DNA of 64,000 nucleotides from Spirochaetia bacterium (GCA_963677925.2 CAXXYH010000003.1:1472001-1536000), one strand, 5' to 3'. Counted from the stretch's first letter, positions 11,356 through 64,000 are shown. Notes: generated by a model from the sequence alone, not told the origin. Numbers and translations: made by a program.

Positions 11356-11380
11356 ATTTAAACCTCTTAGTTCTCAAATC

Positions 11381-11782: not shown

Positions 11783-11818
11783 AATTACTATCTCCTAAAT
11801 TTTCAGTCCAAATACCTA

Positions 11819-15908: not shown

Positions 15909-15936
15909 TAGTTCCTCCATAACTTTTTACACAAAC

Positions 15937-15951
15937 ACTTGTTCTACATGT
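15937..15951. promoter_or_regulatory. FadR-type operator
   Basis: ACTTGTTCTACATGT, between the promoter and start of the 15908 gene. Confidence 0.6.
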
Positions 15952-16016
15952 TGATTAAAAAAATAAGGTTTTTAATACACTTTTAACAACATGAAGTCAT
16001 GTTGTGGTTGAAAAGC

Positions 16017-16046
16017 AGTATAAACACGGTAATTTTTACTTGTCAA
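16017..16046 (-). promoter_or_regulatory. Sigma-70-type promoter
   Basis: TTGACA-18 nt-TATACT on the minus strand. Confidence 0.6.
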
Positions 16047-16080
16047 ATTAATTTTTACCATTTTTTTAGCAATATTTTTC

Positions 16081-16131
16081 TTGACCGCAGTCTTTTTATG
16101 CTTTATCCTCAAATTCACTTGTACTACAAGT
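16081..16131 (+). promoter_or_regulatory. Sigma-70-type promoter followed by FadR-type operator
   Basis: TTGACC-17 nt-TATCCT (16081-16109), then ACTTGTACTACAAGT (16117-16131). Confidence 0.7.
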
Positions 16132-16184
16132 AACTTCTTAGATTGTGGTATAAAATTTTATTTCCCCTTATCGGCAGGTAAACA

Positions 16185-36575: not shown

Positions 36576-37589
36576 TTAGTAGTCTATGTCAAAGAAGAGG
36601 TACGCACCGTTACCGGCAACTGTGCCGTTATCACCGTAAACGATAGTTGAAACATCATCACCGCTGGCCACAACAAAACCGGCACCAATACCAAGTGCAC
36701 CAAGGTTATACTTGCCGCCAAGATCTACTGACTGGAAAACAGAATCTGCTGTTGTATCAAGATCAACAATTGCATAGAGGTCTGTATTTTCAACCATTGA
36801 AGTGCTTACTTCAATAAGACAATCTTTGAAGGCAGAAGTAGCACTGGTTCCGCCTACACCTACGCTTGCATGAATTCCGGCAACATCAGCAGCAACTCCG
36901 GAACTCCAGCCGTATGCTTCTGTTCCAAGTCCATATGTAAAAACCGCAGGTACATATACTGAAACAGCATCAGAATCATAAGTATAACCGGCTTCCGCCC
37001 ATACATTACCTTCTGAAACAGAATCATATGCCGCATAGTAGCCGACCAGGAAGTTAGAACCTTCAACCGGTGAACCGGAGAAAGCAAGTCCCATCATTGT
37101 AAGGTCGAGATCCTGGTAAAATTTCACACTGTAACCGGCAACCCCAAAATCAAGTGCTACAGCTTCATCTTTTTTAGGTCCGAAGTTGAAGAGGTATGCT
37201 GAAGCTGCTCCGGTATAGTAAAATTCTTCACCGCTTCTTGAAACATAATTCCAGTTTGTGAAATATGTATCGAAGTAACCTGCAGTCATTGTGAGACTGA
37301 AAGCTTCAATTCCGAATACACCGGCGATATTGGAGCTTACCCTGAAATCATCAAGTGAAATGTTTCCATCAGTCCAGTCACCACCCTCTGCATCGAGTTC
37401 TACGGCTACTGTAGTGTTATCATCAACAGTTGCGCTGAGGTTTATTTCCGCCTTGGGAGTCTGAGAGGTCTGAGCATCAGCACCAAGGTTAGTTAAACCG
37501 AACATGAACTCTCCGCTGAGGTCAACATCAGCGAAAGCCCCCGCACTGACAACCAGAATCAATGCAAGTAAAATAGACAGTTTTTTCAT
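36576..37589 (-). CDS. Probable outer-membrane beta-barrel/porin
   Basis: SPase I leader ending AFA; alternating amphipathic strands; C-terminal AYLFFDIDY. Start reassigned to 37589. Confidence 0.75.
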   Translation of the reverse strand: MKKLSILLALILVVSAGAFADVDLSGEFMFGLTNLGADAQTSQTPKAEINLSATVDDNTTVAVELDAEGGDWTDGNISLDDFRVSSNIAGVFGIEAFSLTMTAGYFDTYFTNWNYVSRSGEEFYYTGAASAYLFNFGPKKDEAVALDFGVAGYSVKFYQDLDLTMMGLAFSGSPVEGSNFLVGYYAAYDSVSEGNVWAEAGYTYDSDAVSVYVPAVFTYGLGTEAYGWSSGVAADVAGIHASVGVGGTSATSAFKDCLIEVSTSMVENTDLYAIVDLDTTADSVFQSVDLGGKYNLGALGIGAGFVVASGDDVSTIVYGDNGTVAGNGAYLFFDIDY

Positions 37590-37712
37590 TCTTTCTGTTC
37601 TCCTTGAAAATTTATTCCTGTACATGATCTGGTCTTTATGTGTGAAGTATATGGAGGATATGTGGATCGTTATTGAAGATTTGGTGTTTACAGGATGAAG
37701 AACAATCCTGAA

Positions 37713-41208: not shown

Positions 41209-42246
41209 TCACTGTATACTCTTAAATAGCGCATCAATATTCTCAGGCGGAATATCAGGCAGAATGGCTTCATGACTGGGCGATATTATCAGTCCTGTAG
41301 GAAACAGCTTCTTGAGTTCTGCAACCTTTTTACCTACATCATCCGCATTGCCTTTTACAAGCAGATACTGAGCATCCACCCCGCCGCAGAATGAAACCCT
41401 GTCGCCGAATTCATCCTTCAGTGAATACGGATCCATCCCCTTGGCCAGAGCCTGAATAGGATGCACGGCATCCACACCGCATTCGATCAAATCTTCAATA
41501 ATAGGTCTGATCGAACCGCAGGAATGGTGAATAACCTTCAGCCCGTAACGGTGGGCCTGCTCAACCAGCTTCCTTGTTCCGGGCAGAACAAAATCACGAA
41601 TCATATCTGCCGACAGCATCAGGCTCTCCTGACTGCCCAGATCGTTTCCTATAAGAACGGCATGCAGCTTTCCTTCTGTTGCCTTGTAAAAAATCTCATT
41701 GGCTTCAAGATAGAAATCAAGTATACGGTCTATTACCACCCTGAACATCTCGGGCTCAAGCACCATCTTCATAAGTGCTGTTTCCATTCCGAAGGCTGCG
41801 CAGGCATCCTGAAAGTGGGCGGACCATACAACTCCTAGAACTGCCTTATCTGCAGGCGCTGCTTCAACTGCAGCCGCACATTCAGCTGGATCTATATATT
41901 TTGAAGGCACAGGCCAGTCAAAATCATCTATCTTTGATGGGTCGGAATAATCTTCAAAAAAACCGGCTGCAGTCAGAGTCCGTTCATAATCATCATCCCT
42001 GTCGGTTTCAAAGTCCTTCGCAAAATCAAAGGCGGCATAGATTGCGTTGCTTGTAGGTGAATGGTAAGGCAGTTCCACCGGATAAATATCATCATTAACA
42101 GCCTTAGTCATCTCTTCAATATTACTTATTTTAAAATATTCCAGCAGCGACTGATGGGCATCAGGAACCGGAAGTCCCAGCCAGCTTGCCGGATAATCAA
42201 CCGGCTTTCTCTCTATCGTTGCATAAAATCGTTCCAAATGCGTCAT
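41209..42246 (-). CDS. Uroporphyrinogen decarboxylase/MtaA-CmuA (MT2)-superfamily protein
   Basis: GNDLGSQ, HHSCG, HPIQ, FCGGVD, SPSHEA motifs. Confidence 0.85.
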   Translation of the reverse strand: MTHLERFYATIERKPVDYPASWLGLPVPDAHQSLLEYFKISNIEEMTKAVNDDIYPVELPYHSPTSNAIYAAFDFAKDFETDRDDDYERTLTAAGFFEDYSDPSKIDDFDWPVPSKYIDPAECAAAVEAAPADKAVLGVVWSAHFQDACAAFGMETALMKMVLEPEMFRVVIDRILDFYLEANEIFYKATEGKLHAVLIGNDLGSQESLMLSADMIRDFVLPGTRKLVEQAHRYGLKVIHHSCGSIRPIIEDLIECGVDAVHPIQALAKGMDPYSLKDEFGDRVSFCGGVDAQYLLVKGNADDVGKKVAELKKLFPTGLIISPSHEAILPDIPPENIDALFKSIQ

Positions 42247-42256
42247 ACTAATCTCC

Positions 42257-43423
42257 TTACAGTTCCGGAATATCGTACTCTCCGAGATTCAGAGGATAGT
42301 TACCGTATTTCCGGACCAGATCTACTACAAATTCATACCTTTCAGCACTTACGTTACTAGGTACGGAATGATCAGACTGAACAATGTATCCGCCTCCCTT
42401 GGCGGCATTCATCTTTGTAAGAACTTCCTGCTTAAGCTGATCAAGCGGAGCGGTTCCCCAGTTCAATGCGTCAATGTTTCCGCAGAAACCCATATCATGC
42501 CCGTACTGTTTTCTAAGCTCGACTACATTCAGGCCCGATTTGGCCTCAAGCGGGTTGTATGCATCAAGCCCCATTTCAATAAAATCCCTGTAAATGGCCG
42601 AGGCATTGCCGCAGCCGTGATATATAACCGGAAGATTCTTAGAGTGACAGTAATCAATTATCGCTTTCACTCCCGGTTTAAAATGCTGTCTCCAAAACTC
42701 CGGAGAAAACAGCATTCCGTTTACATATGCAACATCGCCCCAGATCACCATGCCGTCAAGCATACCGTCGGCAGCCTTAATCTGGGCCTTCGCAAGCTCA
42801 AGGGTAAACTCGTTTACCCGGCTGATAAACCTGCCCAGCTCTTCTGGGTAGAGGCCCATCCAGAGCATCATGTTCTCAGAGCCGATAATCCTCCAGCCTT
42901 CCTCATGTCCTTCACAGACCGAACCGTATACCGGAAAGTCAGGATGGAATGATTTAACAGTATCGATCCAGGGAGGACTGTTCCGTGAGACAACTTCGGA
43001 AACACCTGCAATCTGATTGTCGCCGCCCTTGAAGTATCTGCGCTCATCCCAGGGGTCATCAAATTCAAATGCCATCATTTTATCGATGGTATCGGTTTCA
43101 AAATGTTCAAAATACGGCATCTGCCTTCCGTCCCGATGCCGTATGACAGCTTCAAAACCGGTCCGTACTACCATATCTCCGTCGCTGTCCGATATGATCT
43201 CAAAATCCTTGATATGGGGATCCATATTCGGGGTTGTTGCAACCCAGTCGAGATCATAATGGTAATAGGGACTGGCATCTTTCGGGAGTCCAAGCTCCTG
43301 CTGCCACCGCTGAATAAAGGTAAGCCAGAAGAAGTCGCTTAACGGCACCCTGTCGGGCTCCTTATGCGCCAGAGCGGTATTCATCCTGTTCAGTTTTTTC
43401 AAACAGTTTTCCGTTCTTTTCAC
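42257..43423 (-). CDS. Uroporphyrinogen decarboxylase/MT2-superfamily protein
   Basis: EPDRVP, WGDVAY, YHGCG, NPLE, FCGNID, QSDHSVP; GTG start after GGAGG. Confidence 0.85.
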   Translation of the reverse strand: MKRTENCLKKLNRMNTALAHKEPDRVPLSDFFWLTFIQRWQQELGLPKDASPYYHYDLDWVATTPNMDPHIKDFEIISDSDGDMVVRTGFEAVIRHRDGRQMPYFEHFETDTIDKMMAFEFDDPWDERRYFKGGDNQIAGVSEVVSRNSPPWIDTVKSFHPDFPVYGSVCEGHEEGWRIIGSENMMLWMGLYPEELGRFISRVNEFTLELAKAQIKAADGMLDGMVIWGDVAYVNGMLFSPEFWRQHFKPGVKAIIDYCHSKNLPVIYHGCGNASAIYRDFIEMGLDAYNPLEAKSGLNVVELRKQYGHDMGFCGNIDALNWGTAPLDQLKQEVLTKMNAAKGGGYIVQSDHSVPSNVSAERYEFVVDLVRKYGNYPLNLGEYDIPEL

Positions 43424-43448
43424 CGCTTACCTCCGTCCGTTTACTATA

Positions 43449-43485
43449 GCTGACCGCGGCAGCTGCTTTTGCCGCCGCAGTCAGC
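43449..43485 (-). repeat. GC-rich stem-loop after binding-protein gene (mRNA stabiliser or attenuator)
   Basis: GCTGACTGCGGCGGC-N7-GCTGCCGCGGTCAGC on the minus strand, with no U-tail. Confidence 0.65.
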
Positions 43486-43499
43486 AATGTTCGTATCTC

Positions 43500-44702
43500 C
43501 TACCACTGAGGAGGATAGAATTCTTCTACGTCGTCGATTGTGATCATGTGCTGAGGCAGGTAGCGTACAGGAGGAATGTCCTTTCCGTTGAACCAGTCAG
43601 CAGCTGTTTTTACGGCAAGGGCGCCGTCGCCTTCTGCAGTCTGATATGTAATAGCATAGAGTTTTCCGTCTTTAACGAGGTCCATACCGACCTTACTGTT
43701 ACCGGCTGCAACTACTACAACATCTTCACGTCCTGCTTTCTTGAGAGCTTCAAAGATTCCAAGAGCCTGGGCTGAATCGTCAGCTGCACAGATACCTTTA
43801 AGATCATCGCCGAATCTTGTGAGCCAGTCGGAAACAAGCTGCATAGTCTTGTCTGCCTCAAATCCTGGAGCCTGCTTGTCAAGAACCTTGATATTGGGAG
43901 CGTACTGTGAGAGTTCGGAAATTGGTCCCCAGCATCTTGAGAAGTAGGGAGATCCGCCGGGTGCATGCTGAATGTATGCAACTCCGCCTTCCTTGCCGAG
44001 CTTATCTGCCCAGAGTTTAGAAAGGATTCTGAACTGGCCGAAATCATCAGGACCTGTCCATGCAATTGCGTAATCCATTGCCTTGGCATCCGGAAGTGTA
44101 TTGAAAAGAATTAAAGGAACGCCGGCCTGATTGATTTTTCTTGCCTGCTGAGGTGCAGTTTTTGCATCAAGCGGGATAAGAAGGATCATGTCGGGTCTTT
44201 CATTGATTGACTGGTCGATCATCTGGTTCTGCACTGCAAGGTCCCAGTTAGGTGACAGTATTTTTATATCCATCTGGTATGCATCGGCAACCTTCTGAGC
44301 TCCGGTTGTACATGCGGTTGTCCAGGGATGGTCACCGTGCACGATCATGATAACCTTTTTACCAATTGCTCCGTCTTTGGGTGATTCAGGAATATTTGTT
44401 TTATTTGTAATCCATCCGGCAAATTCCATATCCCACCAGTGCAGGGGATCAGTTTCAGGAAGTGCTGCGGGATCAGCCGGTCTGGCAGGTACTTCGCGTA
44501 CTGCTCCGCCTACTTTAATAAGCGGCTGGCCGTCTGCTGCTGTAAGCGCATCAGCTGTCTTATCAAGAGCGAGTGAAGCTTCAAGATTACCGCTTCCGCC
44601 TGATGTTTTTGTTTCCTGCTGTCCTCCGGCAGTCAGGTTTCCTGCAACTGTAAAAACAAGAAGCAGGGCGCAGAAAAGAGTTAAAAGTCTTTTCATTTTC
44701 AT
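43500..44702 (-). CDS. Sugar ABC substrate-binding protein with N-terminal extension
   Basis: Leader ending LTAGGQQE; RbsB-like core (HPWT...DQSINERPD...AADD...AAGNS). Confidence 0.88.
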   Translation of the reverse strand: MKMKRLLTLFCALLLVFTVAGNLTAGGQQETKTSGGSGNLEASLALDKTADALTAADGQPLIKVGGAVREVPARPADPAALPETDPLHWWDMEFAGWITNKTNIPESPKDGAIGKKVIMIVHGDHPWTTACTTGAQKVADAYQMDIKILSPNWDLAVQNQMIDQSINERPDMILLIPLDAKTAPQQARKINQAGVPLILFNTLPDAKAMDYAIAWTGPDDFGQFRILSKLWADKLGKEGGVAYIQHAPGGSPYFSRCWGPISELSQYAPNIKVLDKQAPGFEADKTMQLVSDWLTRFGDDLKGICAADDSAQALGIFEALKKAGREDVVVVAAGNSKVGMDLVKDGKLYAITYQTAEGDGALAVKTAADWFNGKDIPPVRYLPQHMITIDDVEEFYPPQW

Positions 44703-44733
44703 CCTCCAATTTTAATGGTTATTCCAAAAGGTA

Positions 44734-45762
44734 TTAAACCTGATTTTGGACTGCTGCCAGTTCCTTCATCAGTTCAGGACGCTGGCCGATAACTTTTTCG
44801 TGTTTGTATGCAACATAGGCTTCATACAGAACAACGAAGGCAAGAATAATTCCCGCTATAAAAATCTTTACTTCATTTCCGAGACCGAAAAGGATAATTC
44901 CATTATAAAGAACATCTAGCATCAGGATTGCTACGAAGGTCTTGAATACTCCGCCTTTTCCGCCGGACATTGAAGTTCCTCCGATTATTGTAGCGGATAG
45001 AACATACATAAGTGAGGAAGTTCCCATATTAAGGGTTGCTGCGGCACTTTCCATTGCGAAAAGAACTCCGCCTATACCGGCCATAACACCGGAGATCACA
45101 AAGGCTGCTATTGTATATTTATCAGTATCGATACCGGCAAGCCAGGCAGTCTGGCTGTTTCCGCCGACCATGTAGAAGTTACGTCCCGTTCTGGTCTTCC
45201 GCATGAAAATTGATGCTCCGGCAACAAGTAATAAAGTTATAATAACCCTGGGTGTTGCAAGGGGAAAAATCATCTTAGCCAGCCAGTCAGACACCGCAAA
45301 GGCATCGTCTGTAGAAAGACTAACCGAGTTTCCCCCTGTAAAGGTATAAATTGCGCCCTGCAGCACAGTCATCATTCCAAGGGTTACAATAAACGAACTG
45401 ATTTTAGCCTTTGACACAAGCAGTCCGTTTATCAGTCCGATTAGACCTCCTGCTATAATTGCCGCAGGAACTGAACCGCCGTATCCCAGGTATTCCTTGA
45501 GACCAAGCCCCAGGATTCCGGTGAATGTAACAATTGTACCAATTGAAAGATCAAGCTGACCGACAATAAGGATTACCGTAAAGCCGATTGCAACAACTGC
45601 GTTCATAGACATAGTCCGCATTATCGTGGTCAGGTTGAACACGTTGAAGAAACGCGGAGCAAAGAGAGCCATGATAATGAACACTATTCCGAACAGAATG
45701 TATATTCTGTTTTTATCTACTATAGTTAAAATTGAATTCTTCTTGTTTTTAAGCATCGTCAC
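44734..45762 (-). CDS. Sugar ABC permease
   Basis: LDLSIG, GGNSQTAWLAG, IIGGTS motifs. Confidence 0.92.
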   Translation of the reverse strand: MTMLKNKKNSILTIVDKNRIYILFGIVFIIMALFAPRFFNVFNLTTIMRTMSMNAVVAIGFTVILIVGQLDLSIGTIVTFTGILGLGLKEYLGYGGSVPAAIIAGGLIGLINGLLVSKAKISSFIVTLGMMTVLQGAIYTFTGGNSVSLSTDDAFAVSDWLAKMIFPLATPRVIITLLLVAGASIFMRKTRTGRNFYMVGGNSQTAWLAGIDTDKYTIAAFVISGVMAGIGGVLFAMESAAATLNMGTSSLMYVLSATIIGGTSMSGGKGGVFKTFVAILMLDVLYNGIILFGLGNEVKIFIAGIILAFVVLYEAYVAYKHEKVIGQRPELMKELAAVQNQV

Positions 45763-46810
45763 GCCCCAGAGATCTCAGAGATTTAGCATTTATACCGACT
45801 ACGATTATGAATATCGCTCCGCGGATCATGTCCTGAGAGAAGGTTCCGACACCGAGCAGTGTCATGATATTATTCATAAGTCCGATTATAAGCACACCGC
45901 CGAGCACTCCGATTATTGAACCGCGTCCGCCGGCAAGGGTCATTCCGCCGATAACTATTGCGGTTACAGCCTTAAAATCGTAGCCTTCACCGTTGTAGTA
46001 GGCACCGACCCTGGAAAGCGAAGTTATTGTCAGCCCGCCGAGTGTGGCTGTAAGTGCACAGATAATAAAGCTTAGTCCGATAACTCTTTCAACATTAACA
46101 CCTGAAAACTTTGCTGCCTTTCTTGAGGCTCCGGTCATCTTAAGCTGCTGGCCGTACTTTGTTTTCTTCATTATAAAGTTCATTACAATCACAAGGATCA
46201 CTAGAAAGACTACAGGCAGTGCTATCTTGTTGAAGAAGCGCAGACGGTAGATGTTGTCAAACAGCTCACTGGCACGCTGAGTTTTTGCGATCATATCCGG
46301 ATAGATCTGTTTGTTGACCCATACCAGCCTTATAACACCAAGTGTTACATAGTTAACAGCCAGGGTCCAGATTATCGGATTTGCCTTGAACTTTCCTACT
46401 GCAACTGCATTTATAAGACCAATAACTATGCCGGTTGCAAAGGCGGCAATCAGGGCAGGTACAAAGCCGAACTGAAGCATCTGAACGGCAACGATACCGG
46501 TCAGCGCCATGGTTGTCGGAACCGACAGGTCGGCATAGTGGCCGGAATAAGTGATAAAGGCCATTCCGACAGCTACGATTCCAAGCATTGAAACCGCATC
46601 AATAATGTTGAGCATATTCTGCGGAGTCATGAAGTTGTTGATGACTCCCAGAAGCTGCAGAATGATTCCGAGAATCAGGAACATTGCCGCAACTGCATAA
46701 ATGCCTATGCCGTGAAAAATCTTTCCTATAATGCTGTAACTTGTTGCCCTTCTGTCTGCGGGCTGCGTTACCTTCTGTTTTTCCTTTTCCATCACCTGTG
46801 TCTCACTCAT
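45749..46810 (-). CDS. Sugar ABC permease
   Basis: ADLSVP, GASRKAAKFSG, AIVIGG motifs. Confidence 0.92.
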   Translation of the reverse strand: MSETQVMEKEKQKVTQPADRRATSYSIIGKIFHGIGIYAVAAMFLILGIILQLLGVINNFMTPQNMLNIIDAVSMLGIVAVGMAFITYSGHYADLSVPTTMALTGIVAVQMLQFGFVPALIAAFATGIVIGLINAVAVGKFKANPIIWTLAVNYVTLGVIRLVWVNKQIYPDMIAKTQRASELFDNIYRLRFFNKIALPVVFLVILVIVMNFIMKKTKYGQQLKMTGASRKAAKFSGVNVERVIGLSFIICALTATLGGLTITSLSRVGAYYNGEGYDFKAVTAIVIGGMTLAGGRGSIIGVLGGVLIIGLMNNIMTLLGVGTFSQDMIRGAIFIIVVGINAKSLRSLGRDDA

Positions 46811-48315
46811 TATATTCCCTCACCATTAGCCGCGAGGAGAACGCTTTCCTCTGTACAGGCAGCCTGATCCATTTCGTGAATGATATGTCCCTGCCTCATA
46901 ATCAGAACCCTGTTTGAAAGAGAGACAAGCTCAGGCAGGTCTGAAGATATAAGCAGTACGGTAGTACCGTTGGCTGCCAGTTTTTCGATAGACTCATGGA
47001 TTGTCATCTTTGCACCGATATCAACACCGCGGGTCGGCTCATCCAGAATGAGGACCTTCGGATCGAGGGCTATCCATTTGGCAAGAAGCACCTTCTGCTG
47101 ATTTCCTCCGGAGAGGTTGCCGGTAATTCTTGATGCATCAGGCGGATAAATAAGCAGTTCCTTTATAAGCTCCTGCATCCGCTCAAGTCCCTCATTCTCA
47201 TGGTAGATTCCGGCCCTGGTAAGCTTGGGGACTATGCCGGCAAGGATGTTCTCCTTGATATCAAGTCTTAATGCAAGGCCTTCGGTTTTGCGGTTCTCGG
47301 TAAGATAGGTTATTCCCTCATCAAGGGCCTGAGCCATCGTTTTGGGATTGATTTCTTTACCGTCTATAAACACCTTCCCTTCATGGCGGTCATCAAGCCC
47401 TACAAGAACCCTTGCAATCTCGCTTCGTCCGGCACCCGAAAGTCCGCAGATACCGAGGATCTCACCCTTCTTTGCTGTAAAGGATACATTATGGAAGAAA
47501 CCGTGCCGGGAAAGGTTCTCAACCTTCAGCCGTTCCTCATCTGTTGCATGGCTTTCATGAGAGTAGAACTCCTTAACAGAGTGTCCGACCATCATCTGAA
47601 CCAGTTCTTCACTGCTTACAGTATCTATATCACGGGTATCAATCTTTTTACCGTCCCGCATTACAGTTACCCTGTCGGCCACCTCAAAAATCTCAGGCAG
47701 GTGGTGCGAAATATAGATGATTGCAAGTCCGCGATTTTTCAGCTTTTTAATGATGTCAAAAAGCCGTTCAACCTCTTCACGCGAAAGAGCTGATGTAGGT
47801 TCATCCATTACCAGGATACAGGGATTGTTTCCAAGCGCCTTGCCTATCTCGACAAGCTGACTCTCATGCTGACTTATTTCTTCGATTTCAAGATCAGGAT
47901 CAAGATGTTCAAGACCAACCTGTTTCAAACAGCGCTTAGTCTCTTTATAGATTTTTTCCTTATCAAGAAAGAGTCCCTTCTTCGGAAGTCTGCCGACCAG
48001 AACATTTTCTGAAATACTCAGAGGCAATGCCAGGCTGAGTTCCTGGTAAATCATTTCTATTCCGTTTTTTTTAGACTGCACCGGTGAGTGCAGAGTCGTC
48101 TCTTTTGAGCCTATGAATATACTGCCGGTGTAATCATTAAAAGAACCGGCTATTATCTTCATAAGCGTTGATTTTCCTGCTCCGTTTTCACCGATAAGGG
48201 CATGAACCTCTCCGGCACGGACATCAAAATCAACATTGTCTACAGCAAGTGTTCCGGGAAAACTCTTGCTGACCCCCTTCATCTGAAGGGCTATTCCAAA
48301 ATTCTCACTACTCAC
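46810..48315 (-). CDS. Sugar ABC ATP-binding protein
   Basis: GENGAGKS, LSGGNQQK, DEPTRGVDIGAK motifs. Confidence 0.95.
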   Translation of the reverse strand: MSSENFGIALQMKGVSKSFPGTLAVDNVDFDVRAGEVHALIGENGAGKSTLMKIIAGSFNDYTGSIFIGSKETTLHSPVQSKKNGIEMIYQELSLALPLSISENVLVGRLPKKGLFLDKEKIYKETKRCLKQVGLEHLDPDLEIEEISQHESQLVEIGKALGNNPCILVMDEPTSALSREEVERLFDIIKKLKNRGLAIIYISHHLPEIFEVADRVTVMRDGKKIDTRDIDTVSSEELVQMMVGHSVKEFYSHESHATDEERLKVENLSRHGFFHNVSFTAKKGEILGICGLSGAGRSEIARVLVGLDDRHEGKVFIDGKEINPKTMAQALDEGITYLTENRKTEGLALRLDIKENILAGIVPKLTRAGIYHENEGLERMQELIKELLIYPPDASRITGNLSGGNQQKVLLAKWIALDPKVLILDEPTRGVDIGAKMTIHESIEKLAANGTTVLLISSDLPELVSLSNRVLIMRQGHIIHEMDQAACTEESVLLAANGEGI

Positions 48316-48345
48316 ATCAAACCCTCATTCCTGTTTAATGCACCC

Positions 48346-48666
48346 TCAGTCAAGATGGTACATTTCTTCCATGTCCGCCCACCATTCGCCATCCTTTCTT
48401 GTTTCAAGCGGGCTCTGCAGCGGTTTCATTATTGCCCACCATTCCTGGGTCTTTGAATCATCCGCCATCTTCTGCATGTCAGCCTCAAAATCTTCGCCGA
48501 CATATTCAAAATAAGCAAAAAGCAGTTCATCTTTAAAAAAGATGGTATAGTTCTTAATATTGCATTCAGTTATTTTGCTGTTTATCTCGGGCCATGCGTT
48601 TGCATGGTACTGCTTATACTTCTCGTAATTCTCTTTTTTAAGGCCGATAACCTGTCCGAATCTCAT
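48346..48666 (-). CDS. L-rhamnose mutarotase-family protein (RhaM-like)
   Basis: YKQYHANAWPE, NYTIF, LFAYFEY, TQEWW, EEMYHLD motifs. Confidence 0.9.
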   Translation of the reverse strand: MRFGQVIGLKKENYEKYKQYHANAWPEINSKITECNIKNYTIFFKDELLFAYFEYVGEDFEADMQKMADDSKTQEWWAIMKPLQSPLETRKDGEWWADMEEMYHLD

Positions 48667-48689
48667 AACACTGTCTCCGTATTAATCCT

Positions 48690-48718
48690 ATCCTAACACG
48701 GAATTTCAGGCTGTCAAG
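48690..48718 (-). promoter_or_regulatory. Sigma-70-type promoter of the mutarotase/ABC/URO-D operon
   Basis: TTGACA-17 nt-TAGGAT with an extended TG. Confidence 0.65.
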
Positions 48719-48873
48719 TTTTTTTGTTAAAATTTTATGCAATATAGCAATATTTTTATCTTGTTTTTACCTTATTTTAGCAAAGATATGTATTTTTAGG
48801 CCGTATTTATCAAATAATTGGCTATTTATAGCGTATTATTGCTAAAATTTTGATAAAATTATTTTAAAAAAGA

Positions 48874-48901
48874 TTGACAGAAACCCAAAGGATGATAAAA
48901 T
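48874..48901 (+). promoter_or_regulatory. Sigma-70-type promoter of LacI gene
   Basis: TTGACA-16 nt-TAAAAT with an extended TG. Confidence 0.6.
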
Positions 48902-48930
48902 ACTGCTAAATTGATTTGCTGGATGAATAA

Positions 48931-49962
48931 ATGAAACCTAAATTGCGTGATGTTGCAGAAAAAGCCGGAGTGTCCCTGACCGCGGCCTCGATGGCTCTCT
49001 CAGAGACAGGCAGAATATCAGATGAGACAAGAGCCAAGGTGTTTGCAGCCGCAGAAAAGCTCGGCTACAAGCGTAAAGAAAAAATCAACAGGATATCCGA
49101 CTTCGATCACGTCTGCGTACTGATAAACGGAGACTACGAATGGGCTTTTATATTCAAATTCATCAGACCCATAATAGAATCCATCGAAAGTGATTTGAAA
49201 GCAGTAGGTCTGAACCTGATTCTCATACCCATATATCACCGAGAAACACCCCAGCAGATGTTTGACAAGATAAAGTCGTCCGGCTCAGGAGCAGTAATTT
49301 CGCTTCACTTCGGAAACGATGAGCTTTTCGCCCGTCTGGAAACAGCCGGGATGATGGTAATAACGGTGATGAATTCTGAGTTTCACGATAAATACTACTC
49401 AATTTGTGTAGATGACTTTCAGGGAGCATACGAAGCAGGAAATCATCTGATAAGACTCGGACATCGCAAGATTGCATATGTCGGCATACAGAGAATTGAT
49501 CTTCCAGCACTTTCAAACGACCGCTTTATCGGATTCAAAAAATCGATGGACGTAAACAGAATTGAACTCCCGCCGGAGTATATATTCGAGTTTGAAACCG
49601 GCCACATGGATAAGCTCCGCAAGGATCTCTATCCTGTTTTCAACCCCGAAAACAAGGTAAAACCAACAGCTGTTTTCTGTCTTGATGATGATCTGGCCTT
49701 ACGGGTAATCCTTGCACTCAAAGAACTTACGCTCTCAATCCCAGAAGATGTATCAATTATCGCCCCCGGTGATGTTCTTGATTACAACATGCCATACATT
49801 CCGCCAATTACCACTATGAAGATAGACACTGCTTATATGGGCAAAATAATTGTGCAGATGCTTATAAACAGGATTGAGAACACTCCCAACAACCAGCATG
49901 GACTCAAAGTTCAGCAGCACCTGGTGGAAAGGGGCTCCTGCCGAAGTATTTCTCAGCAGTAG
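48931..49962 (+). CDS. LacI-family transcriptional regulator
   Basis: LRDVAEKAGVSLTAAS HTH; GHRKIAY; IPEDVSII. Confidence 0.95.
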   Translation: MKPKLRDVAEKAGVSLTAASMALSETGRISDETRAKVFAAAEKLGYKRKEKINRISDFDHVCVLINGDYEWAFIFKFIRPIIESIESDLKAVGLNLILIPIYHRETPQQMFDKIKSSGSGAVISLHFGNDELFARLETAGMMVITVMNSEFHDKYYSICVDDFQGAYEAGNHLIRLGHRKIAYVGIQRIDLPALSNDRFIGFKKSMDVNRIELPPEYIFEFETGHMDKLRKDLYPVFNPENKVKPTAVFCLDDDLALRVILALKELTLSIPEDVSIIAPGDVLDYNMPYIPPITTMKIDTAYMGKIIVQMLINRIENTPNNQHGLKVQQHLVERGSCRSISQQ

Positions 49963-51254
49963 TCCTGAACAACCCGGGAGGCTATAGTCTCCCAGTCCCA
50001 CAGCCTTTCAGGATGGTATTTCACCGTTGAAATATCCTTCATGATAAGCTCAACACTGCACTTCCCTTCTGTTCTGTCCAGAAACTCCCTTATTTCAGCT
50101 TCTGCCCGCCTGGGGTCCCAGCTGCTTTCGGCAAGGATTGCAGGGTTGGGCTTCCGGCTCATCACGTAGCGATCACCGAAATTTTCAACAGCCCGTTCCG
50201 TATCGGACCAGGGGGAGACTGAAACCTTCCTGAGGTTCGGAATGCGCCGCAGTATTTCAGCCTTGCCGTCAAGAGGTTCACAGCATCCGTAGTAGGTATA
50301 CTTCCAGCGCTTAAGCCAGCGCATATCATGTTCAATTGCGAAATCCCAGTGCATGGACGGGGAAACTTCACTGAATATCTGGGCGTTCGAACAGCCCCAC
50401 ATGTTATGCGGCTTAACGTATGCTGGATCATAATCATCTCCCGGCATATCACTGATGTAGCCGTAACCGCCGGAGCCTATTCTTGTATTGCCGCAGTCAA
50501 GGGAGAGCAGGTTCTGCTGCACAAACTGATCCAGTTCAGCCATCCACGCATCCACCATCCGATCTACAAAGGCGTGAACCATATCAGGCCTCATGGCCAG
50601 ATCCATCATAGCCTCCGAAACGCCCCACCAGCGAATTAAATAATCCCAGGGAGTAAACCAGATATGGCTCTGACCGACCTTCTGCACAGGAATTATTCCG
50701 TCAAAGATTTCAGTCATTGCATTAAAGCTGTACTCAGTTGCCTTTTTAAAATGTGTGACCACCGGCATTCTTATCTTCTGCAGGTCATCCATGTCTTTTA
50801 TCTGGATTTCAAAATGCCTTGAATAGATATCATTTTCTTCATCGGTTTTTGCGACATCGACTTTTTCGATAATTCCGAAGTCGGTACTGTGAATAACCAG
50901 GGGGCATTCGATGCGGGGATTTACTATCATGTCTCCGGGCATGTGATTCCACTGGTAAATAATTCTTCGAAGTCTTGTTTCAAGCTCCTGTGCCCAGGGA
51001 TGCCTGGTTTTCAGCGTAAGTTCATCATCGACATTCATCTCATGCCATGGAATCTCATTTATCCAGACAAGAGGGCGGGGATTTTTCAGATCATTCAGCC
51101 GGGTCCAAAGTTGTGCCCTATGGGAATTAACCGGGTCATCGGCAATTTCTGCAATTCGGCTGCCAAGCCTTTTTAGAACATCAATCTCATCTCTATCAAG
51201 AATAATTTCCTCTTCTACCGGAATCTCCGGCCTGTGGCTTGGATCATGCAGCAT
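49953..51254 (-). CDS. Divergent URO-D/methyltransferase-like TIM-barrel protein (YYGCCEPL type)
   Basis: FSEVSPSMHWDF, YYGCCEPL, KVSVSPW, SRKPNP; GGAGG RBS and an extended -10 TGCTATAAT upstream. Fold assignment is from motif resemblance only. Confidence 0.65.
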   Translation of the reverse strand: MLHDPSHRPEIPVEEEIILDRDEIDVLKRLGSRIAEIADDPVNSHRAQLWTRLNDLKNPRPLVWINEIPWHEMNVDDELTLKTRHPWAQELETRLRRIIYQWNHMPGDMIVNPRIECPLVIHSTDFGIIEKVDVAKTDEENDIYSRHFEIQIKDMDDLQKIRMPVVTHFKKATEYSFNAMTEIFDGIIPVQKVGQSHIWFTPWDYLIRWWGVSEAMMDLAMRPDMVHAFVDRMVDAWMAELDQFVQQNLLSLDCGNTRIGSGGYGYISDMPGDDYDPAYVKPHNMWGCSNAQIFSEVSPSMHWDFAIEHDMRWLKRWKYTYYGCCEPLDGKAEILRRIPNLRKVSVSPWSDTERAVENFGDRYVMSRKPNPAILAESSWDPRRAEAEIREFLDRTEGKCSVELIMKDISTVKYHPERLWDWETIASRVVQDYC

Positions 51255-51417: not shown

Positions 51418-52596
51418 TTAACCGGCAACTCCTGATTGTTTTCTTCTGTTTTCAAAACCTGCCAGAAAAAAAGCTGAGGCAAGACCTACTATCAGCATTA
51501 CGACTGAAGCATAGAGAAATATATTACTGATTGCAGTATTTATCATAATTCTTCCGTTTACCATTGTCCCCAGAGCGCCTCCAACAAACATGTTAAAGGA
51601 AGCCAGAGACATTGCCGTCCCGCGCATTGAGGGAAGTTTCATCTGTGCAGTTGAAACCAGCGTTGTCTGCAGGAAAATGAAAGCAATACCGAAACTGAAC
51701 AGTCCAAGACAGAGCATTAAAACACCGGAAAACCTTGATAAAATATACAGCCCTGCAAAACCGAGAATTCCGGCTGCTGCAAGAAAACCGTGTTTTAACA
51801 ACTTCCGCATTTTCGGTGCAATTCTTCCGCCGAATACTGTACCCACCCCGAAGCAGGATAAAATCAATCCTACCTGGAGAACAGATAATCCGGTAGCCTG
51901 CTGGAGCAGCTTACCTGAATAGGTAAAACTTCCAAAAACTGCAAAGCCGACAAAGAAAATGGTAACAACAAGCCGCATAAACCTGGCGTTCGACAGCGGC
52001 GTCTTATAGGCAGTTACAAAATTAAGCCTGTCCACTACTCCGCTGTCTTTTTCAAGCATCCTGGTCATTATCACAGCCGCCGCCAGCTCTCCGATACCGT
52101 AGACAATATAAACAAGTCTCCATGAGCCGAAATACGAAAGAATACCGCCAATGGCTGTAGCTGTAGCGCCGCCGAGAAACATCATCCCCATAACCTTCCC
52201 GAGTGCACCCTGCCGTTGCTTATCATCAAAAGACTGACCGACCAGGGCCATTGTTACAGGAAATATTCCCGCTCCGAAAGCTCCGTTGAAAGCTCTGAAG
52301 ACCATCAGACTCTGCAGATTAAATGCAAACCCACCCAGAATACTGAATACAGCGGTACCGAAGGCTGCGATACGGATAATCCGGACTTTTCCGAACCTGT
52401 CTGAAAGCGGACCGAAAATCAATGTAAAAAGTCCGAACGATAGCATATATGCAGTTACAGAGTATGCGGCATGCTGGACTGTAAGGTTCAAATCTTCGGA
52501 TATTTTCAGCAACAAAGGTGCCGCTGCATAATTATCTCCGTTAGTCATAAATGCCATAAGACCGAGAATCATCAGCATTGAGTTCTTCTTATTCAT
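51418..52596 (-). CDS. MFS transporter (DHA1-like)
   Basis: Motif A GPLSDRFGK; about 12 TM segments. Confidence 0.92.
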   Translation of the reverse strand: MNKKNSMLMILGLMAFMTNGDNYAAAPLLLKISEDLNLTVQHAAYSVTAYMLSFGLFTLIFGPLSDRFGKVRIIRIAAFGTAVFSILGGFAFNLQSLMVFRAFNGAFGAGIFPVTMALVGQSFDDKQRQGALGKVMGMMFLGGATATAIGGILSYFGSWRLVYIVYGIGELAAAVIMTRMLEKDSGVVDRLNFVTAYKTPLSNARFMRLVVTIFFVGFAVFGSFTYSGKLLQQATGLSVLQVGLILSCFGVGTVFGGRIAPKMRKLLKHGFLAAAGILGFAGLYILSRFSGVLMLCLGLFSFGIAFIFLQTTLVSTAQMKLPSMRGTAMSLASFNMFVGGALGTMVNGRIMINTAISNIFLYASVVMLIVGLASAFFLAGFENRRKQSGVAG

Positions 52597-52966
52597 CAGT
52601 TTTCCCTATTATTTCACCAATCTCACTGCTGACACGCTTAATAATTTCATCGGTAATTTCTGTTTTACCTTTTTCCACTCCGTAATCAGTCATAACAAAC
52701 TGTGTATAGGGCAGGTTTTTATTTTCAAATATTTTCTTTCCGCACCCTACCTTGCATCCGTCCATAATAAAATTCCCGTCTGACTCTTTTGCAGAGATCA
52801 GAAATCCTGAAAGATCCGCACCGACTGCAGCCAGACAGGTTCCGGCAGCAACCCCTTCTGACTTCAGCGCTCTAAAAACCTGATCAGCAAGATACCCGGT
52901 ATTGGCTGCACCTGAACATGAGTATATGAGCCTGACCTTTTTATCATCACCGCAACAGCATGACAT
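52589..52966 (-). CDS. DGC-domain putative zinc-binding protein
   Basis: MSCCC, YSCSGAAN, CLAAVG, DGCKVGC motifs. Confidence 0.88.
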   Translation of the reverse strand: MSCCCGDDKKVRLIYSCSGAANTGYLADQVFRALKSEGVAAGTCLAAVGADLSGFLISAKESDGNFIMDGCKVGCGKKIFENKNLPYTQFVMTDYGVEKGKTEITDEIIKRVSSEIGEIIGKTDE

Positions 52967-52979
52967 TTGATACTCCTTT

Positions 52980-53027
52980 TTTGTTTAAAAGTTTCTTTAT
53001 TAAGAAACTTTTAAACAAAGATGTCAA
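52980..53027 (-). promoter_or_regulatory. Long palindromic operator overlapping the promoter of the DGC-MFS operon
   Basis: 18-bp arms TTTGTTTAAAAGTTTCTT-tatt-AAGAAACTTTTAAACAAA (52980-53019); TTGACA at 53027-53022. Confidence 0.7.
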
Positions 53028-53071: not shown

Positions 53072-53101
53072 TTGCCAACTTTTAAAAATGAGTGCTATAC
53101 T
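53072..53101 (+). promoter_or_regulatory. Promoter of a probably leaderless LacI transcript
   Basis: TTGCCA-18 nt-TATACT with an extended TG; ATG follows 6 nt later with no RBS. Confidence 0.6.
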
Positions 53102-53107
53102 CGGGCC

Positions 53108-54094
53108 ATGGCTATCACAGTAAAAGAAGTTGCAGTTCATGCAGGTGTTTCAACAGCTACGGTATCAAGAGTCCTGAATAACGACCCCGGTATAAAACCG
53201 TCCACAAGGGAAAAAGTCCTGAAAGCGATCAAAGACACCGGCTACAGAATGAACCGTGCGGCAAGAAGCCTGAAAACTTCCAGGACAGGAACTGTAGGCC
53301 TGCTTGTACCGGAACTTGTAAACGACTTTTTTATGACTGTGGCAAAGGGCGTTGAAGATGAGCTTCGGGCCTACGGCTACGGGGTAATTCTCTGCAATGC
53401 AAATGAAAACACAGATGACGAGAAAGACCGGATTGAACTTCTTATAGAGCAGTGTGTAGATGGTGTGATTATCATTCCGGTCGGTTCCAAAGGAAATCAT
53501 TTTAATCTTTTAAGCAGGACGGAAACCCCGGTTGTACTTGTCGACAGACTGGTAGAGGATTTCTCAAGTGACGCAGTACTGGCAGATAACATAAGCGGAG
53601 CGTTTTCGGCAGTAGAAAAACTGATAGCAGACGGCTGCAGGCGCTTCGGTTTTATCGGCGGGAGCCTTGATCTCTCAAACTTCCGTGAACGGTATGAAGG
53701 CTTTCAGAAGGCCCTTGATGCCCACGGAATTAAACCTGAGCCTGAAATTATCAAGTTCGGAGATGTTCACATAGAATCCGGCTACAGATTCATGAAAGAG
53801 CTGATGGAAGCCCCTTCCCCGCCTGAAAATGTATTTATAGCCAACTACTTTCTTCATGTAGGAGCGGCAAAATTTCTGTTCGAACACAAAAATGAACTCC
53901 CCTGTGATATCAGGATCGCCGGTTTTGACGATATGGCCCTCTCTTCAATACTCGGATTTTCAAGTGTAACGGTTTCACAGCCTATGCTTGAGATGGGAAA
54001 GACAGCAGCGAATCTGCTTATGAGACGGATAAAGAAGGAAACAGAAGAATGCTGCTCGATAATAAGACTTGAAACCAGCCTCATTGAGCATTGA
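53108..54094 (+). CDS. LacI-family transcriptional regulator
   Basis: TVKEVAVHAGVSTATVSRVLN; AARSLK; GFDD. Start reassigned to ATG 53108. Confidence 0.95.
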   Translation: MAITVKEVAVHAGVSTATVSRVLNNDPGIKPSTREKVLKAIKDTGYRMNRAARSLKTSRTGTVGLLVPELVNDFFMTVAKGVEDELRAYGYGVILCNANENTDDEKDRIELLIEQCVDGVIIIPVGSKGNHFNLLSRTETPVVLVDRLVEDFSSDAVLADNISGAFSAVEKLIADGCRRFGFIGGSLDLSNFRERYEGFQKALDAHGIKPEPEIIKFGDVHIESGYRFMKELMEAPSPPENVFIANYFLHVGAAKFLFEHKNELPCDIRIAGFDDMALSSILGFSSVTVSQPMLEMGKTAANLLMRRIKKETEECCSIIRLETSLIEH

Positions 54095-54141: not shown

Positions 54142-54192
54142 TTGATTTTTATTTTAAATCGGTGGATAATAAATGTAATCGATTACATTTAT
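54142..54192 (+). promoter_or_regulatory. fucI promoter with LacI-type operator
   Basis: TTGATT-17 nt-GATAAT; perfect 24-bp palindrome ATAAATGTAATCGATTACATTTAT (54169-54192) with central CG. Confidence 0.82.
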
Positions 54193-54228
54193 ACTCTTGA
54201 TTATCGACAGTTTAAGGAGTTTTTTCTG

Positions 54229-56034
54229 ATGAGTACAGGAAAGGAATTCAAAAACAGACTAAAAGGCGAAATGCCTAAAATCGGCATACGTCCTGTTATT
54301 GACGGAAGGATGAGGGGTGTACGCGAATCACTCGAAGTCCAGACTATGAACATGGCTGCATCAGCCGCAAAATTAATTACTGAAAATCTCAGGCATCCCA
54401 ACGGACTTCCTGTTGAATGCGTTATTTCTGATACAACCATAGGCGGAGTTGCAGAAGCTGCTCAGTGCGCTGAGAAATTCGCCAGAGAAGGTGTAGGTGT
54501 TTCACTTACAGTAACCCCCTGCTGGTGCTATGGGACCGAGGTAATGGATGCCGATCCCAACCTGCCGAAAGCTGTATGGGGATTTAACGGTACAGAACGC
54601 CCGGGTGCGGTTTATCTTGCCGCAGCTCTTGCCGGTTATGCCCAGAAGGGACTGCCAGCATTCGGTATCTACGGACGTGATGTTCAGGACTCCGACGATA
54701 CATCAATTCCCGAAGACGTAAAAGGCAAACTGCTCTCATTCTCAAAGGCCGGACTGGCTGTAGCCTACATGAAGGGTAAATCATACCTTTCAATCGGCGG
54801 AACCTCTATGGGTATTGCAGGATCAATTGTAGACCAGGATTTTTTCCAGGAATATCTTGGAATGCGGACCGAAGTAGTCGACATGAGCGAAGTTGCCCGC
54901 CGTGTCGAAGAGGATATCTACGACAAAGATGAGTTTAAAATAGCTCTTGAATGGGTAAAAAAGAACTGTAAAGAGCAGGAAGACACTGTTAATCCTCCAG
55001 AGTGGAGACGCTCCCCCGAACAGCGCCAGAGCGACTGGGAATATGTAACCAAGATGGTTATGATAGGCCGCGACCTCATGGTAGGCAATCCCAAGCTTGC
55101 AGAGATGGGATATGGAGAAGAGGCCATGGGCCGCAATGCAATAGCAGGCGGATTTCAGGGCCAGAGGTCATGGACCGACCACTACCCCAACGGCGACTTC
55201 ATGGAAACCATGCTCAATACATCATTCGACTGGAACGGAATACGTGAAGCCTTCGTTTTCGCCACCGAAAATGATGCACTTAACGCTGTCCCCATGCTTT
55301 TCGGTCATCTTCTTACCGACACTGCACAGATCTTCAGCGATGTAAGAACTTACTGGAGCCCTGAAGCAATCGAAAGAGTAACAGGATGGAAACCTGAAGG
55401 TAAGGCTGCTGACGGCCTTATTCACCTGATAAACTCAGGCTCAACAACCCTTGACGGAACAGGCGAACAGACGGGTAAAGACGGCAAGCCTGTAATGAAA
55501 CCCTTCTGGGACATCACTGAAGATGAGGTTAAGAAATGTCTTGAGGCAACAGAGTTCTGCGTCGGCGACGGCGGATACTTCAGAGGCGGCGGCTATTCAA
55601 CTGACTTCCTCACTAAAGGTGATATGCCTATTACTATGAGCCGTGTGAATATCATCAAGGGACTGGGCCCTGTTCTTCAGCTTGCAGAAGGCTGGACTGT
55701 AACAATTCCCGAGAAGGCGCATGACACACTCGATGTCAGAACAAATCCGACCTGGCCTACAACCTGGTTTGCTCCAAGAGTTACAGGAAAGGACGGGGCT
55801 TTCAAGGATGTATATTCTGTAATGGCAAACTGGGGTGCAAACCACGGCGCCATAAGCTATGGACATATCGGCGATAAACTGATAACACTATGTTCTATGC
55901 TTAGGATTCCTGTATGCATGCATAACGTTGAAGATGAAAGAATCTTCAGGCCTGCAGTATGGAATTCATTCGGTATGGACAAAGAAGGTGCAGACTACAG
56001 AGCCTGCGGAAACTTCGGACCAATATATAAATAA
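54229..56034 (+). CDS. fucI: L-fucose/D-arabinose isomerase
   Basis: [47 protein letters not shown]; ATG 54229 after AAGGAG. Confidence 0.97.
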
Positions 56035-63940: not shown

Positions 63941-64000
63941 CTACAAATCTATCGGATAGGTTCCGTATTTTTCAACAGTCTCTACCATTGCCATCAGTGA
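63941..64000 (-). CDS. C-terminal fragment of a gene entering from the right edge, probably another URO-D/MT2-family protein
   Basis: Reads SLMAMVETVEKYGTYPIDL-TAG, similar to VVDLVRKYGNYPLNL near the end of 42257-43423; followed by a terminator. Confidence 0.55.
   Translation of the reverse strand, partial: SLMAMVETVEKYGTYPIDL

Follow-up and report, generated by a model that had tools for sequence, protein, structure and literature searches.

Methyl ethers on sugars obstruct ordinary catabolism, hence the interest of a route that removes them without oxygen. The closest described systems are the four-component aryl methyl ether O-demethylases, such as MtoABCD of Methermicoccus shengliensis, MtvABC of Moorella and Odm/Vdm of Acetobacterium. 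Of their components, MtoB and MtvB are substrate-side methyltransferases (MT1) of the MtaA methyltransferase superfamily, working with a corrinoid protein, a second methyltransferase (MT2) and an activase (PMC8630106). For sugars, three reports describe a cytochrome P450 that demethylates 6-O-methyl-D-galactose in marine Bacteroidetes (PMC6292453, PMC10033563, PMC9400963), and this aerobic reaction was the only sugar demethylation route found in the portions of the literature searched. Glycoside hydrolase family 139 (GH139), represented by two 2-O-methyl-fucosidase structures (PDB 9HMB and 9HYQ), has alpha-1,2-linked 2-O-methyl-L-fucose as the target of its sole known activity (PMC12282258). 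Full-text searches of literature outside subscription journals and supplements gave no paper in which corrinoid methyltransferases or URO-D-family proteins are connected with methylated sugars or methyl-fucose, or with fucose loci or fucoidan. Here we describe a sugar-uptake locus containing such URO-D-like proteins in a 64,000-nt stretch of DNA (the window) from a Spirochaetia bacterium (GCA_963677925.2, CAXXYH010000003.1:1472001-1536000). Plain coordinates are positions in the window; L and G numbers label loci and genomes.

The locus (41209-51254) combines a monosaccharide importer and a RhaM-family mutarotase with three genes coding for proteins A, B and U433. We consider it moderately probable that these three are substrate-specific methyl-ether:corrinoid methyltransferases, converting methyl-fucose to L-fucose for the L-fucose isomerase FucI; 2-O-methyl-L-fucose is the best candidate for the substrate. 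The features concerned are the following.

41209-42246, minus strand: A, URO-D/MtaA-fold protein of 345 aa, PF01208 79.8 bits; proposed methyl-fucose:corrinoid methyltransferase (MT1)
42257-43423, minus strand: B, URO-D/MtaA-fold protein of 388 aa, PF01208 74.6 bits; proposed second methyl-ether methyltransferase
43500-44702, minus strand: substrate-binding protein of a CUT2 ATP-binding cassette (ABC) importer, Peripla_BP_4 128.1 bits
44734-45762 and 45749-46810, minus strand: two ABC permeases, BPD_transp_2 114.4 and 122 bits
46810-48315, minus strand: ATPase of the sugar ABC importer, with two ABC domains (ABC_tran 180.9 bits, 2 stretches)
48346-48666, minus strand: RhaM-superfamily mutarotase, first gene of the operon, PF05336 108.4 bits
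48667-48930, no strand: divergent promoter region between operon and lacI 1, sigma-70-like sites from a scan
48931-49962, plus strand: LacI-family regulator 1 (LacI and Peripla_BP_3), divergent from the operon
49953-51254, minus strand: U433, 433 aa, predicted URO-D fold, converging on lacI 1; proposed third methyl-ether methyltransferase
54142-56034, plus strand: L-fucose isomerase FucI, NF008220 1083.7 bits (cut-off 775), TIGR01089 1066.9 bits (cut-off 850)

The minus strand carries, between 48666 and 41209, a head-to-tail series of seven genes separated by gaps of -14 to +76 nt, in the order mutarotase, tandem ABC ATPase, two permeases, binding protein, B and A. This operon, divergent from lacI, was described in an earlier note made from the sequence alone, and open reading frame (ORF) prediction with Pfam searches bears it out. 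Other statements of that note stand as well. U433 is its third, divergent member converging on lacI, at fold level only; a further gene entering at 63941 belongs to PF01208; and fucI, placed there at 3 kb, was found 2.9 kb from the locus, its product scoring above the FucI equivalog cut-offs. Among window ORFs searched with Pfam, the operon includes no kinase, aldolase or glycosidase, and FucK and FucA were not found in the window. As the note had also stated, neither a corrinoid protein nor the activase RACo was detected in the 64-kb window by Pfam and genome profile searches.

A and B match the C-terminal half of the Pfam URO-D profile, and orthologues of A cover nearly the full profile (in L016, for example, positions 4-345 of 346). 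By this PF01208 membership A and B fall into the MtaA/URO-D methyltransferase superfamily, to which U433 is related at fold level only. The best PDB sequence match of A is MtaA (4ay7, E 2.8e-8); B matches the same structure with E 0.004. His-x-Cys is aligned in both cases, and both alignments are limited to the C-terminal half of the query. From the Pfam and PDB matches, the fold of A is assigned as URO-D/MtaA. The A-family profile gave marginal PDB matches (4ay7, E 0.041), therefore no closer solved relative is known.

The two families are distinct, B being 28% identical to A. Invariant residues of the A family are H241-S-C243-G, H262-PIQALA and S322-P-S-H325-E326-A (24 sequences, 54-87% identical to the A of the window), and those of the B family H269-G-C271-G and Q349-S-D351-H352-S (20 sequences). 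We take the zinc site of MtaA to be His-x-Cys followed by a distal Cys, its HxC presumably being the thiol-activating zinc motif. Because an invariant histidine replaces that distal cysteine, we infer that A and B carry a His/Cys/His metal site; in A, the invariant His-x-Cys...His site probably binds zinc. Both families are large: A has 3285 matches at E<=1e-5, the best 120 of them 66-98% identical and distributed across Spirochaetia, Clostridia and Mahella, and B has 5700 matches at E<=1e-20, the best 120 being 66-100% identical.

U433 gave no match by sequence in Pfam, NCBIfam or PDB. Its family comprises 6567 homologues at E<=0.001, of which the best 120 are 65-100% identical and the named ones are called hypothetical. 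Comparison of its profile (25 members) with that of A (24 members) by hhalign gave 82% probability, E 1e-5, over 225 columns. An AlphaFold model of U433 (pLDDT 77.9, pTM 0.82) was submitted to Foldseek, which returned URO-D structures first (3gw3, E 4.5e-8; TM 0.44-0.57), then MtaA (4ay8, 2.4e-6) and, more weakly, MetE structures. U433 is thus predicted to be a URO-D-fold protein, at fold level only. Its invariants include Y321-Y-G-C324-C325-E and H400-V-E402.

Homologs of A were collected to examine their genomic surroundings. A scan of species-representative genomes yielded 21 A loci in Spirochaetia, Bacteroidales, Prolixibacteraceae, Lentisphaeria and Victivallales, and genome searches added 13 further A-positive genomes. 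Neighbourhoods of about 8 kb were analysed for 26 A loci, 15 by Pfam and 11 by a tblastn panel only; L011, nearly identical to the window, and the short contigs L013, L025, L026, L027 and L029 were left out. At least one fucose-related gene is present in 19 of the 26. The earlier note had proposed co-occurrence with fucI and rhaM as a check: the rhaM family occurs in 9 loci and FucI in 1, along with GH29 in 8, the RhaT carrier in 7, GH95 in 3 and GH139 in 3. Outside the window, FucI is close by in L067, an A locus, and in L049, a U433 locus. Spirochaetia loci L011, L012 and L014 retain the gene order of the window, the position of lacI 1 being conserved in L012 and L014.

The GH139 linkage recurs in three loci. 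In L031, a 772-aa protein encoded directly upstream of A matches PDB 9HMB over its full length (E 1.9e-134); in L028, the protein upstream of A matches the same structure with E 1e-69; and in L068 the upstream protein is 33% identical to the GH139-like protein of L031 (E 6e-116). An orthologue of B (L045) adjoins rhaM and lies 2.8 kb from a GH139 gene, and another (L044) adjoins AraC and a RhaT-like carrier; in B loci L078 and L079, nothing beside B matched the tblastn panel. Orthologues of U433 adjoin an MFS carrier, two GH29 genes and SusD (L046) or a sodium:solute symporter and rhaM (L047), or lie near LacI and FucI (L049). B and U433 are present in 5 and 9, respectively, of the 21 A-carrying genomes at E<=1e-30 and are inherited independently of A. 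The three proteins may be enzymes for different methyl positions or different sugars, which is the weakest part of the model.

A glycyl-radical enzyme gene adjoins the A orthologue in L021 (1995-6301), with its activase and a PhyH-family protein, and in L031 (2976-6257), with a 4Fe-4S ferredoxin-type ORF; a weaker match lies near A in L071 (14630-16162), and the source genome holds at least seven matches to this enzyme.

Physical association of A with corrinoid genes was observed in few loci. In L024 (Bacteroidales), RACo with a 2Fe-2S domain (Fer2) and a 222-aa B12-binding corrinoid protein are encoded on one strand. The opposite strand carries a run of AraC, a formate/nitrite channel, FTHFS, a Pterin_bind methyltransferase (249.9 bits on NF005719, cut-off 259), MTHFR, a GHL6-like protein and A, continued by RhaT, GH95, GH29, Amidohydro_2 and a sulfatase, with a small antisense ORF between A and RhaT. 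L024 reads as a complete O-demethylase set, by predicted functions, combined with a folate route to formate and with fucosidases. It is the only locus that holds a corrinoid protein together with A. In L017 the order is A, rhaM, RACo, a second URO-D-like protein, MFS and a rhamnosidase-like glycoside hydrolase (GH); its close relative L016 has A, RACo, the second URO-D-like protein and the rhamnosidase-like GH, with no rhaM. Where L017 has rhaM, L016 contains a DUF4143/AAA_14 ATPase gene (11316-12599) between A and RACo, which looks like an insertion. In a further Bacteroidales locus (L053:7695-12632), RACo adjoins a rhaM-like gene (31% identical to that of the window) and a URO-D-like gene (34% to A), another physical link of the activase to an A-type locus.

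The earlier note suggested a search for corrinoid and activator genes beyond the window. Both are present in the same genome, at a distance of about 226 kb from A. The source genome (5.04 Mb, 99.6% complete) has there a hub cluster consisting of a corrinoid protein, an MtaA-like enzyme, CobW, the sole RACo of the genome (C3:1739903-1741726; 251.9 bits; AcsV-like 412.6 bits, below cut-off) and a PocR/AraC regulator. The corrinoid protein (C3:1744211-1744843), the only one in the genome, contains B12-binding and B12-binding_2 domains with the GDLHDIG (DxHxxG) motif. The MtaA-like enzyme is the single full-profile MtaA-like protein among 13 PF01208 matches (183 bits in Pfam; 4ay7, E 1.5e-23; TIGR01463 142.8 bits, below the cut-off of 235.4). 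Adjoining the corrinoid protein, it is the candidate MT2 of this organism. None of the other 12 URO-D-like genes lies beside a corrinoid gene. Of one-carbon (C1) genes, an FTHFS-FolD-FTCD_C-formate channel operon is situated about 80 kb from A and there is one MTHFR in the genome; acetyl-CoA synthase was not found in it. Candidates for class II aldolase occur elsewhere in the genome.

Comparable hubs of two types were detected in other A-positive genomes. Type 1 contains a corrinoid protein, an MtaA-like enzyme, CobW and sometimes RACo; type 2 contains a corrinoid protein, MeTr, MTHFR, FTHFS and sometimes a formate channel. Their positions are as follows.

Type 1: L001:4901-9844 (source genome), L057:6763-11906, L074:5948-8869, L075:6995-9757
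Type 2: L024:568-8762, L076:7403-12137, L077:7347-12939

In L074 the hub and A share a contig and are 10 kb apart. Of 34 A-positive genomes, 13 carry the MtaA-like hub enzyme at E<=1e-50; none of the 34 has both hub types, and 18 gave neither with the queries used. Hub operons of either type hold no obvious substrate-side methyltransferase, which fits dispersed MT1 genes feeding a shared carrier.

At genome level, A and RACo occur together. Of 21 A-carrying genomes, 18 encode RACo, versus 1 of 14 control genomes. Among 301 sampled Bacteroidales, A was found in 16 and RACo in 19: both in 11, A only in 5, RACo only in 8 and neither in 277. These counts give an odds ratio of 76 (Fisher p 7.6e-12), to be read with the reservation that the sampled genomes are phylogenetically related, therefore the test overstates, and that the sample is even, but centred on G007, itself chosen for carrying A. 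Two genomes of the sample are B-positive; both carry RACo and both are among the eight with RACo only. In Spirochaetota A was found in 3 of 401 genomes, therefore too few for a co-occurrence test there.

Taken together with family assignments, these linkages suggest the following course of events. O-methylated L-fucose would enter through the CUT2 ABC importer. A would bind it at a zinc site polarising the ether oxygen, and corrinoid Co(I) would attack the methyl carbon, giving methyl-Co(III) and L-fucose; B and U433 probably do likewise where the methyl group sits at another position or on a related sugar. The shared hub about 226 kb away would supply RACo and CobW along with the corrinoid protein and a second, MtaA-like methyltransferase. 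The second methyltransferase of the hub would unload the methyl group, with tetrahydrofolate (THF) as the presumed acceptor where MeTr is present, as in loci such as L024, and RACo would use ATP to restore oxidised Co(II). Finally, L-fucose would be anomerised by the RhaM-family mutarotase and isomerised by FucI, entering catabolism. Import and the mutarotase and FucI steps are proposed from family assignment, all others from linkage. The earlier note proposed that O-methyl sugars are demethylated anaerobically, which would free a 6-deoxyhexose for FucI, and the linkages to fucose genes and GH139 and, in other genomes, to RACo, a corrinoid protein, MeTr, MTHFR and FTHFS support this idea. It is refined in three respects: the corrinoid machinery would be the remote hub, the mutarotase appears to be of L-fucose rather than rhamnose type (see below), and A and B, regarded there as MT2-like, look likelier to be substrate-side MT1.

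Several observations weigh against methyl-fucose:corrinoid methyltransferases, besides the limits of the Fisher test given above. No fucose gene was found near A in 7 of the 26 loci (L015, L016, L018, L030, L062, L065, L069), and GH29 and GH95 release plain fucose, so that their linkage to A alone does not indicate a methylated sugar. A corrinoid gene (corrinoid protein or RACo) accompanies A in only 3 of the 26 loci, L016 and L017 being close relatives. RACo is missing from 3 of the 21 A-carrying genomes and from 5 of the 16 A-positive Bacteroidales, including G671, where A lies on a 4.1-Mb contig. On the MtaA/CmuA model TIGR01463, where the cut-off is 235.4, A reaches 43.0 bits and B 37.7, and U433 gives no match; the MtaA-type His-x-Cys...Cys site is not conserved, the distal position being an invariant histidine (H325 in A, H352 in B). 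The source genome contains no GH139, therefore the organism would scavenge methyl-fucose released by others. Nor does it contain a methyl-THF:corrinoid methyltransferase except MetH, and no clear folate MT2 was found in it.

The absence of corrinoid genes from the window and from 23 of the 26 A loci, and of RACo from part of the A-positive Bacteroidales, would be explained if A, B and U433 were zinc enzymes of the URO-D/MetE clan acting directly on fucose or a derivative, for example by transferring the ether methyl to a thiol such as homocysteine or by a reaction that does not involve methyl at all. The putative His-x-Cys...His site, unlike the His/Cys/Cys ligands we assume for MtaA, and the weaker MetE matches of the U433 model fit this as well. 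We disfavour this main rival, the second alternative of the earlier note, and regard it as unlikely: co-occurrence of A and RACo across genomes is strong, both B-positive genomes of the Bacteroidales sample carry RACo, in L017 A, rhaM and RACo are consecutive, and in L024 A belongs to a strand run with MeTr, MTHFR and FTHFS beside the corrinoid protein and RACo. Less likely still, the mechanism is right and the sugar another one: 3-O-methyl-rhamnose, 2-O-methyl-xylose, another methyl-fucose isomer or a methylated oligosaccharide. In its favour, 7 of the 26 loci have RhaT-family carriers, L016 and L017 have rhamnosidase-like GHs, and sulfatases (L023, L024, L030, L065, L072) point to algal sulfated glycans rather than rhamnogalacturonan II. 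Moreover, A, B and U433 are distinct families, all linked to fucose, therefore they cannot all share one substrate. On the other side, GH139 adjoins A in three lineages and lies near B in one, the mutarotase is of predicted L-fucose type, and FucI occurs close by here, in L067 and in L049.

That A and B are MT2-type enzymes, which pass methyl from methyl-corrinoid to a thiol or other acceptor and do not act on sugar, is in our opinion very improbable. Their best solved relative is indeed the MT2 enzyme MtaA, with which they share the HxC that we take to be its thiol-activating motif. A is, however, surrounded by substrate-specific genes (GHs, carriers, mutarotase, sugar regulators); the MT2 slot is already filled by MeTr (L024, L076, L077) or by an MtaA-like protein (L001, L057, L074, L075), and the hub operons lack an MT1. 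Finally, a role as true uroporphyrinogen decarboxylases of haem or sirohaem synthesis, suggested by the Pfam URO-D match and by the database name "uroporphyrinogen decarboxylase family protein", has a negligible chance of being correct. The genome has 13 PF01208 matches, 8 of the 12 divergent ones stand beside transporters, no tetrapyrrole genes are near and the context is sugar uptake. On the HemE model TIGR01464, A and B score 16.3 and 26.1 bits against a curated cut-off of 302.95, and HemE was rejected as an assignment for either protein.

Returning to the reading as methyl-fucose methyltransferases, the importer and mutarotase were compared with characterised families. That one operon combines a tandem ABC ATPase with BPD_transp_2 permeases and a Peripla_BP_4 binding protein identifies a CUT2 monosaccharide importer. 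The closest solved chains of the binding protein are CUT2 sugar-binding proteins (4rs3, E 3.4e-25), and an N-terminal signal sequence is seen in its translation. The permeases are AraH-like, under the equivalog cut-offs, and the ATPase is AraG-like at 501.9 bits, below its cut-off of 689. No substrate-specific transporter equivalog reaches its cut-off, therefore the ligand of the importer is not given by homology. The PF05336 match of the mutarotase spans the whole protein (residues 2-105 on profile positions 1-105). The protein reaches 49.3 bits on the L-rhamnose mutarotase equivalog TIGR02625, below the cut-off of 99.6, and its best PDB matches are "L-fucose mutarotase" 7BYU/7BYW (E 1.1e-31), versus 3.1e-6 for L-rhamnose mutarotase 6HHN. 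It is therefore assigned, from these matches, to the L-fucose type and not, as in the earlier note, to the rhamnose type.

In the gap between operon and lacI 1, the best sigma-70-like sites of the scan are 48717-48690 on the minus strand (10/12) and 48874-48901 on the plus strand (11/12); overall, the promoter and terminator scan did no better than on shuffled sequences (24 found versus a mean of 20.6). Upstream of U433 and beyond, the window contains the following features.

51418-52596, minus strand: MFS_1 transporter, 158.8 bits, upstream of U433
52589-52966, minus strand: DGC-domain protein of 125 aa, DGC 83.5 bits, upstream of U433
52980-53019, no strand: perfect inverted repeat with 18-nt arms and 4-nt spacer, read from the sequence; candidate operator
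53072-54094, plus strand: LacI-family regulator 2 (LacI and Peripla_BP_1)
63941-64000, minus strand: 3' end of a fourth URO-D-like gene, coding for 387 aa and running past the window edge, PF01208 84.1 bits

Since they share strand and are closely spaced, the DGC, MFS and U433 genes probably form one operon, divergent from lacI 2 and fucI. Search for an operator common to both divergent regions of the window defined no shared motif; only the palindrome 52980-53019 stood out, which is a candidate shared operator for DGC-MFS-U433 and lacI 2-fucI. The fourth URO-D-like gene corresponds to L003:1942-3105(-); the genes after it encode two Zn-dependent alcohol dehydrogenases, LacI and a TRAP transporter. 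The remaining part of the window (1-36300) is rich in other uptake and catabolic loci, among them two further CUT2 ABC systems with GntR/FCD regulators, a lactonase, 6-phosphogluconate dehydrogenase, a PfkB kinase, Zn-dependent alcohol dehydrogenases, a TctABC carrier, a 2-oxoacid:ferredoxin oxidoreductase and a sigma-54 PrpR-type activator. Three ORFs, of 349, 374 and 277 aa (36576-37625; 14796-17018), matched no Pfam family at the thresholds used.

Besides A and B, the source genome has ten further divergent URO-D-like paralogues.

L002:8127-9245, L003:1942-3105, L003:14073-15089, L004:8263-9525, L005:6037-7275
L006:7995-9260, L007:8014-9264, L008:7563-8834, L009:8225-9229, L010:7832-8767

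Eight of the 12 divergent genes adjoin transporters, five in CUT2 sugar ABC operons (A and B included) and three beside TRAP/CitMHS. Four are near GFO/IDH/MocA oxidoreductases, three of these also near xylose-isomerase-like TIM proteins; the fourth, in L007, has the oxidoreductase without the TIM protein. The ten paralogues may serve other methylated sugars or sugar acids. A broader proposal, which we make tentatively and hold to be somewhat doubtful, is that scattered URO-D-fold proteins represent a large unrecognised class of carbohydrate methyl-ether:corrinoid methyltransferases with one shared hub per genome. Each copy would belong with a particular transporter or glycosidase (12 divergent copies here, up to 91 PF01208 matches in a Victivallales genome), and from the hub methyl would go to THF and thence to formate, or to a different acceptor. 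PF01208 counts are high in several genomes: 91 in the Victivallales genome of 6.6 Mb, 47 in a Lentisphaeria genome, 26 in a 2.6-Mb Victivallaceae genome, 23 in Bacteroidales G014 and 14 in Bacteroidetes G011.

If such demethylation takes place, O-methylated sugars of plants and algae would be a general source of methyl groups and C1 units in anoxic sediments and guts, linking glycan degradation to C1 metabolism and to vitamin B12 demand in anoxic habitats. The 2-O-methyl-fucose of rhamnogalacturonan II would gain a defined anaerobic fate, with candidate enzymes named for the steps after its release by GH139. Corrinoid O-demethylation would be extended from aromatic to carbohydrate ethers, and a function would be available for three very large conserved families now named only "URO-D family" or "hypothetical".

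Compared with the aryl ether O-demethylases, the proposed system is alike in an MtaA-related MT1, a B12-binding corrinoid protein, an MT2 to a folate-type carrier and an ATP-dependent activase, all four of which occur with A in L024. It differs in the substrate, which is aromatic there and would be an aliphatic sugar methyl ether here. In addition, each of A, B and U433 belongs to a highly conserved family of its own, far under the MtaA/CmuA cut-off, and in most genomes the proposed MT1 genes stand in sugar loci, apart from the single shared corrinoid hub. MtaA itself (PDB 4AY7/4AY8, methylcobalamin:coenzyme M methyltransferase) is the closest solved sequence relative of A and B and is also matched by the U433 model. 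Unlike them, it is an MT2 acting on a thiol, with a distal zinc ligand that we take to be Cys, versus the invariant His of A and B.

With the P450 route the proposed one shares that a sugar methyl ether blocks catabolism and is removed after release of the monosaccharide. The P450 is an unrelated, oxygen-dependent enzyme that yields formaldehyde, whereas the route proposed here would need no oxygen and would conserve the methyl group as methyl-corrinoid and methyl-THF. The GH139 alpha-1,2-(2-O-methyl-L-fucosidase) BT0984 (PMC12282258) would supply the proposed substrate; it is a glycosidase and its family lies outside this window. Classical L-fucose utilisation has FucI and an L-fucose-type mutarotase in common with the locus and differs from it by FucK and FucA, which the window lacks, and by the three URO-D-fold genes that are added here upstream of the pathway.

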